Source: a virus
Taxonomy: Duplodnaviria > Heunggongvirae > Uroviricota > Caudoviricetes
Length of the DNA stretch: 5,725 nt
IMG/VR virus record: IMGVR_UViG_2706794692_000009
Direction: 5' to 3' (one strand)
Positions 1,598 to 2,174 of this stretch are shown here, one piece after another; positions within the stretch are counted from its first letter, which is position 1, and every line of letters starts with the position of its first letter. Position numbers and translations under genes: made by a program. The notes beneath the pieces are model-generated. The model was not told where the DNA came from and searched no databases. It saw only the letters and a program-made list of their open reading frames with translations.

Positions 1598-1710
1598 CGC
1601 CACCAGCACACCGTCAGCCAGCACTGACATTATCCGGCTGCTGCAATGCCATTCACAAAAACAGTAAGCAATCACTTTTTACCGTAACAGGTGATAATCC
1701 AGATATGTAT

Positions 1711-2064
1711 CTACCCCAGATGAGTAATCCGAAGTTCATCCATACCACAGGTCCTGGCTATTCTGTTGTACTCCTGAACAAGAGCAAATAATTCTGAATT
1801 AGCAACCATGAACTCATCGCAAACCCTCTGTATAGCATCACTATTCAGAATAATAACGTCTCTTCCCGAAAGACGATCAGGAGTACAGAACAAAACTGTC
1901 AAACGGCTGAAGGCCTTTGCTCGTGCTGCATTGACTATATCAATACGCTGCCTAAGGATGAAACACCCCGACGCCTCATCAATATTCACTCTACCCACAC
2001 CATATGAATGATAAATATTTAATGCTGAAAAAACCATTAGACCGTATAACAAACACTCAATCAA
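1711..2064 (-). CDS. hypothetical protein, 117 codons (108 aa if started at the first ATG), cargo ORF downstream of the tRNAs
   Basis: Longest open frame in this interval and in the same orientation as the phage operon. The listed start is TTG at 2064 with no convincing Shine-Dalgarno; the first in-frame ATG is at 2037-2035. No recognisable motif. The 67-codon plus-strand ORF 1808..2011 overlaps it antisense. Confidence 0.35.
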   Translation of the reverse strand: MIECLLYGLMVFSALNIYHSYGVGRVNIDEASGCFILRQRIDIVNAARAKAFSRLTVLFCTPDRLSGRDVIILNSDAIQRVCDEFMVANSELFALVQEYNRIARTCGMDELRITHLG

Positions 2065-2174
2065 TACTTAACAGAACTTTTATTTTTGACAAACATAAAA
2101 TATTTTCAACAATATCCTGAGCCAGGTATATTTCAGTATAAGGCTCTGCCGGAAGGAATCTGGAAGAATGAATA

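Follow-up and report, generated by a model that had tools for sequence, protein, structure and literature searches.

The Locus

The stretch of DNA considered here, IMG/VR record IMGVR_UViG_2706794692_000009 (5,725 nt; hereafter, the window), is, as read from its gene content, the late-regulatory region of a lambdoid Escherichia coli prophage in which the relevant genes are all found on the minus strand. The interval under study (positions 1598-2174; 577 nt) contains ORF92, an open reading frame (ORF) of 92 codons, together with the start of a gene encoding a DUF3927/TciB-like small membrane protein. Read along the minus strand, the window presents, in order, genes encoding RusA and the antiterminator Q, a tR'-like terminator, a 65-residue winged helix-turn-helix (wHTH) ORF, a methyltransferase gene, tRNA-Ile2, a remnant of argN, tRNA-Arg, ORF92, the DUF3927/TciB-like gene and an STnc100/PasD small RNA, after which, in relatives, the lysis genes follow. 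ORF92 is a genuine and widespread accessory (moron-type) gene; a toxin or defence role for its product is unsupported. Throughout, numbers preceded by L denote related contigs or loci, while those preceded by P denote homologous proteins.

ORF92 Is a Protein-Coding Gene

The initial annotation of the interval had centered on a 117-codon frame running from 2064 to 1711, described as the only sizeable ORF present, as having a weak translation start and as being flanked by a run of masked bases. That frame indeed exists and is the longest complete ORF of the interval, and its flank is masked from position 1399 to 1597. The real gene, however, corresponds to only the last 92 codons of this frame, and the DUF3927 gene, which enters the interval at 1598-1675, had been overlooked. 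On comparative sequence grounds, the minus strand of the window between positions 1711 and 1989 is a genuine protein-coding gene of 92 codons that begins with GTG, and it is considered highly probable that ORF92 is a real accessory gene with the boundaries 1989 to 1711. The predicted product, MNIDEASGCFILRQRIDIVNAARAKAFSRLTVLFCTPDRLSGRDVIILNSDAIQRVCDEFMVANSELFALVQEYNRIARTCGMDELRITHLG, has a mass of 10.4 kDa and an isoelectric point of 5.7.

When the interval was subjected to dinucleotide shuffling, ORFs of at least 117 codons arose in 17 of 2,000 shuffles and ORFs of at least 92 codons in 111 of 2,000. Given these values, the length of the ORF is by itself weak evidence, and it is the comparative data that make ORF92 a gene. 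In three diverged E. coli lineages, namely, those represented by the window, L005 and L008, the frame extends for exactly 92 codons from the homologous GTG. Comparison of the three revealed a nucleotide identity of about 72%, pairwise ratios of non-synonymous to synonymous substitution (dN/dS) of 0.26-0.27 and differences distributed over the three codon positions in proportions of roughly 20/20/40, such that third positions differ about twice as frequently as do first or second positions. The L008-type copy is, moreover, annotated by the Prokaryotic Genome Annotation Pipeline (PGAP) as a 92-residue hypothetical protein (WP_001017777.1) that starts from GTG preceded by an AGGAG Shine-Dalgarno sequence. 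The possibility raised initially, namely, that the ORF might not be conserved as coding in any related genome, is thus contradicted by its conservation as a coding sequence in relatives.

The same picture emerged within the window lineage, where IMG/VR prophage copies were sampled through an anchor lying outside the ORF. Each of the 73 copies covering the gene (73/73) retained both the 92-codon frame and the GTG, with polymorphism in the core amounting to 4.7 sites per 100 nt, as compared to 9-12 in the 5' extension and the spacer. Of the three candidate start codons, GTG at 1989 offers the best predicted Shine-Dalgarno pairing (-4.5 kcal/mol), followed by ATG at 2037 (-2.4 kcal/mol) and TTG at 2064 (-0.9 kcal/mol), the last value being in line with the weak start noted initially for the 117-codon frame.

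Two plus-strand ORFs antisense to this region (1808-2011 and 2004-2120) were considered and rejected, as neither matched a known family and since the codon-position pattern fits the minus-strand frame; the second of these is annotated in phage mEp460_ev081. A terminator-like hairpin inside ORF92 (1875-1857) is likewise taken to have arisen by chance, since it is conserved in neither L005 nor L008.

ORF92 Occupies the Position of stx2AB

The region of lambdoid prophages that extends from Q to the lysis genes is the one in which conversion genes, including those for Shiga toxin, are carried on the late transcript. StxA comprises some 319 residues and StxB some 89, both with signal peptides. When the window was compared to the corresponding locus of phage 933W by blastn, positions 2578 to 2167 matched 933W locus positions 1970-2380, through the end of argO, while positions 1348 to 1262 matched 933W 3749-3835; in 933W, stxB ends at 3703, with homology resuming 46 nt thereafter. 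Because homology to 933W stops at 2167 and resumes at 1348, the intervening segment of the window takes the exact place of the stx2AB cassette. As such, the earlier placement of the ORF in the Stx slot, after the Q-proximal tRNAs, is borne out by base-for-base alignment. The window cassette lies between the last tRNA and the STnc100/PasD small RNA, which forms its downstream border. The slot is identical to that of stx2AB in 933W (Q, tRNAs, stx, nanS-p, lysis genes), with ORF92 assuming the same orientation in the Q-dependent late transcript, and the flanks shared with 933W are the ileZ/argN/argO cluster upstream and, downstream, the STnc100/PasD region found just 3' of stxB. The Q/tR' layout of the window is also analogous to the arrangement annotated in 933W.

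The occupant itself is of a different kind. No similarity of ORF92 to StxA or StxB was found, with a Pfam scan containing no Stx-like domain and returning only noise (RHIM, E=0.09), in agreement with the initial statements that the product is neither Stx subunit and bears no recognizable motif. Moreover, unlike Stx, a secreted AB5 toxin, the ORF92 product is modelled as a small cytoplasmic helical hairpin.

The slot, initially described as a moron hotspot, is mosaic across phages and can contain tciA-tciB, an AraC-like gene, a TolA-like gene or nanS-p, the last of which many relatives carry further downstream. In JLK-2012 and related prophages, the same slot after the Q-proximal tRNAs is occupied by tciA-tciB, encoding TerB and DUF3927 proteins, whereas in the window, the DUF3927 gene begins 35 nt after ORF92. 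In L007, a prophage of O178:H19 Shiga toxin-producing E. coli (STEC), the slot holds a TolA-like gene, a methylase remnant, an AraC-like regulator and a diverged ORF92. ORF92 is thus positionally analogous to both stxAB and tciAB and homologous to neither. Two features expected of a moron are apparent. The first is variable presence, with stx2AB, tciA-tciB, the TolA-like and AraC-like genes, or ORF92 and the DUF3927 gene occupying the slot in different phages. The second is a distinct base composition, given how the ORF92 core has a GC content of 44% and the leader and spacer 31-32%, as compared to 53% for the methyltransferase gene and 49% for Q.

The ORF92 Family and Its Distribution

The ORF92 gene was found in 1,314 of 5,426 complete E. 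coli genomes (about 24%), with the 577-nt interval being at least 95% identical in 1,213 of these 5,426 genomes and window-type ORF92 being present at an identity of at least 99% in some 1,180. Considered together with its recurrence in the corresponding part of the late operon in other Enterobacterales, this distribution indicates that ORF92 is not cargo specific to one strain. Phage collections gave a different result, with the full interval and the window-type gene being detected in only one of 50,697 phage records, namely, mEp460_ev081, and the family as a whole in only mEp460_ev081 and the ST64B group. The mEp460_ev081 genome (L002, LR597641.1; positions 4447-5077) is the only isolated phage genome with a window-type cassette. 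It is an 'ev' derivative of mEp460, a name which suggests that the cassette may have been gained by recombination with a resident prophage during passage.

At the protein level, the 117-codon frame matched PHROG 2873, a family of unknown function (E=3.8e-70; residues 10-117 versus profile positions 1-108 of 108), as did the divergent homologue P0014 (E=7e-48). This is consistent with the initial description of the function as undefined, the slot being filled by an occupant without an assigned function. The PHROG 2873 profile includes 16 additional N-terminal residues that the comparative data indicate to be untranslated. A weak match of ORF92 to phrog_4827 (E=4e-5), likewise a family of unknown function, was also noted. 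A protein search returned P0014 and P0015, encoded on L005 and L006, as full-length homologues (56% identity). An exhaustive profile search of 1.84 billion representatives returned only 21 clusters, the full-length members of which comprise 91-106 residues, with their alignment to the 117-codon frame starting at about residue 26. The 40 protein clusters assembled include sequences from Citrobacter, Salmonella, Xenorhabdus, Morganella and Serratia, with the proteins being 91-110 residues long; for homologues of 91-99 residues (Citrobacter, Salmonella, Morganella and Serratia), the alignment begins no earlier than residue 26, and homologues sharing as little as about 21% identity retain this length. 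When genome contigs were scanned with a profile of the Serratia-type subfamily, matches were obtained only in Morganella and Proteus. As judged by these searches, the ORF92 family is small, confined to the Enterobacterales, corresponds to PHROG 2873 and consists of proteins of 91-99 residues.

Scans of ORF92 and of the divergent homologue against Pfam, NCBIfam and PADLOC returned nothing, and a Pfam scan of all 22 family members gave only noise. Nor did PADLOC-DB v2, at E<=0.1, assign any family to ORF92, the divergent homologue, or the DUF3927, IraM-like or AraC-like neighbors. ORF92 therefore belongs to an already catalogued hypothetical prophage family, listed in GenBank entries as 'hypothetical protein' of 108 or 92 residues, and is not a new kind of element.

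Genomic Contexts and Recurrent Neighbors

In prophages of Citrobacter, Morganella and Serratia, the homologue runs in the same direction as the late operon and is located between the holin gene and Q, the latter being accompanied in some cases by a methyltransferase gene and tRNAs. ST64B Sb55, which shares with ORF92 both size and a late-operon location, is a homologue of the Serratia-type member (about 33% identity). In Salmonella phage ST64B, Sb55 follows an Rz-like spanin gene, with the gene that precedes it encoding a KilA-N protein labelled 'transcriptional regulator' in the record. This mobility between recognized lambdoid cargo positions means that ORF92 behaves as a moron and not as a core phage gene.

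Several neighbors recur. Downstream, a TerB-domain gene followed by a DUF3927 gene that overlaps it was present in both Citrobacter loci and in eight of the 15 loci of the L008 type. In L157, the order is methyltransferase, ORF92, TerB, DUF3927, two holins and an endolysin; in both L157 and Citrobacter, ORF92, TerB, DUF3927 and holin genes appear in this order, with ORF92 itself being unrelated to TerB and DUF3927. A YdeO/GadX-like AraC regulator (PHROG 1450) is encoded directly upstream of the L005-type gene (L005 and L006) and in one L008-type locus (L150). This regulator is possibly a member of the Psr/PatE group, prophage AraC regulators which rewire acid resistance and type III secretion. 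The window lineage has no tciA, yet its ORF92 is intact. A partnership with the tRNA genes was considered and rejected, since only some half of the contexts present a tRNA gene in the 600 nt or so upstream; an upstream tRNA hence reflects the slot rather than a partnership.

One E. coli subfamily was encountered outside prophages. P0035 (91 residues) is encoded at positions 5001-5276 of L013-L015, plasmid-like contigs with a Rep3 replication gene, adjoining a PapB/usher/chaperone (K88-like) fimbrial operon and with tRNA-Thr some 580 nt upstream. The locus looks as if a piece of the prophage cargo slot had been transplanted onto a plasmid.

Neighboring Features of the Window

The features of the window, together with those of related loci referred to here, are listed in Table 1.

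Table 1. Coordinates of ORF92 and of the surrounding features; positions refer to the window unless another locus is named.
Feature	Position	Strand	Basis or remark
iraM-like anti-adaptor gene	460-795	+	NF007393, 162 bits; PHROG 4407
STnc100/PasD-family small RNA	1130..1319	-	Rfam RF02076, 123.6 bits versus gathering score of 47, E=1e-27
Cassette equivalent in position to stx2AB of 933W	1349..2166	-	ORF92 and DUF3927 gene
DUF3927/TciB-like small membrane-protein gene	1385..1675	-	GTG at 1675; stop at 1385-1387 if the frame holds
Spacer, ORF92 stop to DUF3927 gene start	1676..1710	-	35 nt
ORF92 (real coding sequence)	1711..1989	-	GTG 1989-1987, TAG 1713-1711; 92 codons
117-codon ORF	1711..2064	-	TTG start; longest complete ORF within 1598-2174
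25-codon 5' extension of the 117-codon ORF	1990..2064	-	Behaves as non-coding DNA
AT-rich spacer, tRNA-Arg to ORF	2065..2174	-	GC 32%
tRNA-Arg (TCT)	2175-2251	-	ARAGORN; Rfam, 68 bits; homologue of 933W argO by sequence comparison
Degenerate middle tRNA (argN of 933W)	2252..2351	-	100-nt inter-tRNA spacer
tRNA, anticodon CAT (tRNA-Ile2)	2352-2427	-	ARAGORN, Rfam; PGAP annotates tRNA-Ile; identical to 933W ileZ
N6/N4 DNA methyltransferase	2468-3526	-	
65-residue winged-helix (wHTH) ORF	Between tR'-like terminator and methyltransferase gene	-	
tR'-like intrinsic terminator	4018-3999	-	Terminator scan
Q-type antiterminator	4099-4920	-	Pfam PF03589, E=6e-55
RusA gene			Partly masked; first in late-region order
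AraC-like regulator copies	L005 164-889; L150 3121-3849; L007 4164-4889		STEC-type prophages, upstream of diverged ORF92
L007 STnc100 copies	L007 3537-3778, 5473-5748, 5769-6017, 6039-6276, 6299-6393		

Only the first 26 codons of the DUF3927 gene (1598-1675, the left 78 nt of the interval) are visible, with the remainder lying under the N-run. At the homologous place, PGAP annotates a 43-residue DUF3927 family protein in every relative inspected. The homologous 43-residue product of L001, which shares the 26 visible residues of the window, except that the start GTG is rendered as M or V, matches Pfam PF13064 (E=1.7e-27; 95.6 bits versus a cut-off of 25). The gene also matches PHROG 1470, 'TciB-like', the full label of which reads 'TciB-like inhibition of cell division or resistance to colicin'. 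The product, VIAYCFCEWHCSSRIMSVLADGVLVAGVVVVAFPLLKKKTPDC, contains one hydrophobic segment, as compared to two in the full-length 50-residue versions.

The N-run flanking the interval comprises 199 nt, whereas more than 120 related prophages carry 40 nt at this place, and no relatives with 185-213 nt there were found; the length of the mask accordingly cannot be relied upon. The 159 nt by which the mask exceeds the 40 nt of the relatives are divisible by three and preserve the frame of the DUF3927 gene. Elsewhere in the window, the N-run at 824-1073 together with positions 1074-1137 stands where L003 has 3 nt. The lengths of the masks may differ from those of the underlying sequence, or the genome may carry rare insertions.

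Of the three tRNA genes of the 933W cluster, the middle one survives in the window as a remnant that retains both halves of the acceptor stem (CCGCCAT...ATGGCGGTCCA) but has a disrupted anticodon arm, and that was called by neither ARAGORN nor Rfam. The window prophage would hence have two working tRNAs, as compared to three in 933W. Upstream, the module comprising the wHTH ORF and the methyltransferase gene (window 2468-3992) is present in L003 and L022 and cleanly absent from L001 and L004, in which the tRNAs come directly after the Q terminator; the boundaries of this indel are sharp (about 2467/2468 and 3992/3993).

The STnc100-family small RNA has its own terminator at 1159-1141, as revealed by a terminator scan, and is related to the PasD small RNAs of enteropathogenic E. 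coli. The family has recently been surveyed in pathogenic E. coli (bioRxiv 10.64898/2026.05.13.724894). In L007, the STnc100 element appears at five or six tandem places between the AraC-like gene and nanS-p. At the far end of the region, the iraM-like gene is antisense to the late operon, has a GC content of 34.5% and represents another host-regulation cargo gene in the same Q-to-lysis region.

Expression Signals

The Q gene and the tR'-like terminator (3999..4920) together define a unit of late transcription that extends into ORF92. A promoter-like site at 2465-2437 on the minus strand corresponds in position to the putative tRNA promoter pT of 933W. A weak sigma-70-like site (TTGAAA-16-AAAAAT; 2109-2082, minus strand), scoring 9 of 12 in the promoter scan, is found in the AT-rich spacer between tRNA-Arg and the ORF, with the scan of the window revealing no independent strong promoter for ORF92. 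No terminator-like site was detected by the terminator scan, either between the tRNAs and ORF92 or between ORF92 and the DUF3927 gene (1676-1710). Toward the upstream side, homology with the L005 and L008 lineages is lost at no more than 2 nt from the TTG or close to the GTG, such that the upstream signals are lineage-specific. Two signals border the gene in the L008 lineage, namely, a promoter-like site (10 of 12) some 110 nt before it and a clean terminator 24 nt past its end.

The Predicted Protein

When ORF92 was modelled with AlphaFold2 using a 22-sequence alignment, a mean predicted local distance difference test (pLDDT) score of 88.8 and a predicted template modelling (pTM) score of 0.75 were obtained. 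The model corresponds to an antiparallel hairpin of two long helices (residues 3-34 and 50-81) joined by a conserved TPDR-containing loop and followed by a short tail. Residues R23, N64 and N75 do not vary across the family; the relatives are mostly acidic to neutral. No signal peptide, transmembrane segment or long hydrophobic segment is evident in the ORF92 sequence. Given this, the lack of any PADLOC, Pfam or NCBIfam match and the plain hairpin of the model, the initial suggestion that the slot holds a candidate toxin, defence or anti-defence gene finds no support here.

Fold searches returned generic hairpins only. The modelled architecture recalls small helical proteins of the Rop and GapR types, antiparallel helical hairpins which, like the ORF92 model, comprise about 90 residues, and helix 1 weakly matched a GapR/UPF0335 profile (E=0.06). 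Small helical proteins of the ANR family, of which Aar is the archetype, oligomerize and exert their effect as anti-activators by binding an AraC-family regulator (PMC4983702), and the presence of an AraC-like gene directly upstream in two ORF92 lineages makes the analogy tempting. ANRs are, however, smaller than 10 kDa, contain three helices and present conserved A10, E14, A22, W26, A29, W43 and R47 residues (PMC4983702), whereas the window protein is of 10.4 kDa, has two modelled helices and no tryptophan, does not contain the signature and yields no sequence match. Membership in the ANR family was accordingly rejected, with any resemblance being by analogy only.

Interpretation

The explanation favored here, held with moderate confidence when taken as a whole, i.e., as an accessory gene, its expression and a binding modulator as its product, is that ORF92 is a cargo gene of the late operon, the hairpin product of which would act by binding a partner. 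ORF92 would be transcribed by read-through of Q-modified RNA polymerase, strongly so upon induction. Because no terminator intervenes between the tRNAs and ORF92, low-level transcription in the lysogen is also probable, initiated either in the AT-rich spacer or at the promoter-like site of the tRNAs. The gene of the L008 lineage has a promoter-like site and a terminator of its own. The product is predicted to be a soluble, mostly acidic antiparallel two-helix hairpin, too small and featureless for an enzyme. As the hairpin is conserved and contains invariant polar residues, it would most likely form a four-helix bundle with itself and act through the binding of a partner protein. Rather than being a toxin, it would most probably modulate the regulatory or envelope-stress cargo with which it travels, namely, the TerB/DUF3927 module or the AraC-like regulator. 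Given that the slot carries an IraM-like anti-adaptor and Hfq-type small RNAs in addition to an AraC-like regulator and the TerB/DUF3927 membrane pair, a role in modulating host regulation or envelope stress is favored. The binding-modulator mechanism in particular is offered tentatively, drawing as it does on the structural model and on the neighbors. Doubtful, yet worth stating, is a broader version in which ORF92 founds an unrecognized family of small helical-hairpin modulators carried as prophage cargo, acting either as co-factors or anti-activators of AraC-like regulators or as the cytoplasmic partner of TerB-DUF3927.

Several observations weigh against this explanation. Within the window lineage, the core polymorphisms among the IMG/VR copies comprise six synonymous and eight non-synonymous changes, pointing to only mild constraint. 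The start context is weak in both the window and L005 lineages, and use of the promoters and of the GTG start are both inferred from sequence. Most copies reside in prophages that may be defective, and in none of the 36 rows drawn from along the ranking does RefSeq/PGAP annotate a coding sequence at the window-type copy. This annotation gap is systematic and is probably caused by the weak start context and the atypical composition. As to partners, the Morganella and Serratia copies lack an adjacent TerB, DUF3927 or AraC-like gene, such that no one partner is common to all contexts. Lastly, the modelled fold, being generic, neither supports nor excludes any function.

An alternative, which is improbable although the strongest of the competing explanations, assigns ORF92 to a module for phage exclusion, colicin- or tellurite-type stress or anti-defence, together with TerB (TciA) and DUF3927 (TciB). 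Such a role would be in keeping with the presence of TerB and DUF3927 genes after ORF92 in three lineages and of the DUF3927 gene after ORF92 in the window, with the PHROG 1470 label and with the conversion genes that phages carry in this slot. Yet, PADLOC returned nothing for ORF92 or its neighbor, ORF92 occurs without TerB/DUF3927 just as tciA-tciB occurs without ORF92 in JLK-2012, and ORF92 is intact in the window lineage, even though tciA is absent and the DUF3927 product has one hydrophobic segment where the 50-residue versions have two. Moreover, the 'Tci' label is annotation only, with a literature search for TciA/TciB having yielded only unrelated papers on Trypanosoma genotypes.

Somewhat less probable still is the view that ORF92 is not a conversion gene but instead encodes a phage protein of late function or associated with lysis, for example, one acting in lysis timing or as an accessory to late expression. 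The orientation of the gene is always that of the late operon, it lies directly upstream of holin genes in Morganella, Serratia, Citrobacter and L157, and no independent strong promoter was found in the window, all as would be expected of such a protein. A late or lysis function is, however, difficult to reconcile with the absence of the gene from almost all sequenced lambdoid phages (among the 50,697 records, only mEp460_ev081 and the ST64B group), with a position that varies from before the holin gene to after Rz to a plasmid, with the lack of a transmembrane segment and with the promoter-gene-terminator layout seen in L008.

The possibility that a longer product is made in the window lineage, either of 117 residues from TTG 2064 or of 108 residues from ATG 2037, as set by gene callers and by PHROG 2873, was also considered. 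The frame is open from 2064 in both the window and L005, the PHROG 2873 profile spans 108 positions that match residues 10-117, and many database entries are of 108-118 residues. The extension itself, however, behaves otherwise than does the core. Its GC content is 31%, as compared to 44% in the core, and its polymorphism of 9.3 sites per 100 nt, as compared to 4.7, resembles that of non-coding DNA. One IMG/VR copy bears a frameshift inside the extension with the core intact, and in L008, an in-frame stop upstream of the GTG closes the extension. Conservation of the extension between the window and L005 is, moreover, poor, and none of the distant homologues has it. The extension lacks Shine-Dalgarno pairing, and in a first structure model, the extension residues were assigned pLDDT scores of about 40, i.e., were modelled as disordered. 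As such, a longer product is quite unlikely, with positions 1990-2064 most likely corresponding to an untranslated AT-rich leader. A chance ORF or decaying pseudogene in the tRNA-distal spacer of defective prophages, for which one could cite the missing PGAP annotation in some 1,180 complete genomes, a length that is only moderately unusual and a few frameshifted or deleted database variants (P0008, P0009, P0013 and P0017), is very improbable, being largely refuted by dN/dS values of about 0.26 in all three pairwise comparisons with the length exactly preserved, by homologues of as little as about 21% identity that retain this length, by the 73/73 intact copies and by an AlphaFold2 model that became confident once the alignment was deep enough.

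What is new here are thus the corrected coding sequence (1989 to 1711), the signature of purifying selection, the exact equivalence in position to stx2AB and the recurrent neighbors (TerB/DUF3927, the AraC-like regulator and the STnc100/PasD small RNA) of ORF92, a cargo gene that may act by binding a partner. Because the window-type gene is unannotated in every RefSeq copy sampled, it is invisible to gene-based pan-genome and association studies. Should the protein have no measurable effect, then ORF92 would represent one more hypothetical prophage gene. If, on the other hand, the protein modulates host regulators or envelope stress, then it would be a common, overlooked lysogenic-conversion factor, with a quarter of E. 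coli genomes carrying an unannotated host-modulating factor in the Stx slot.

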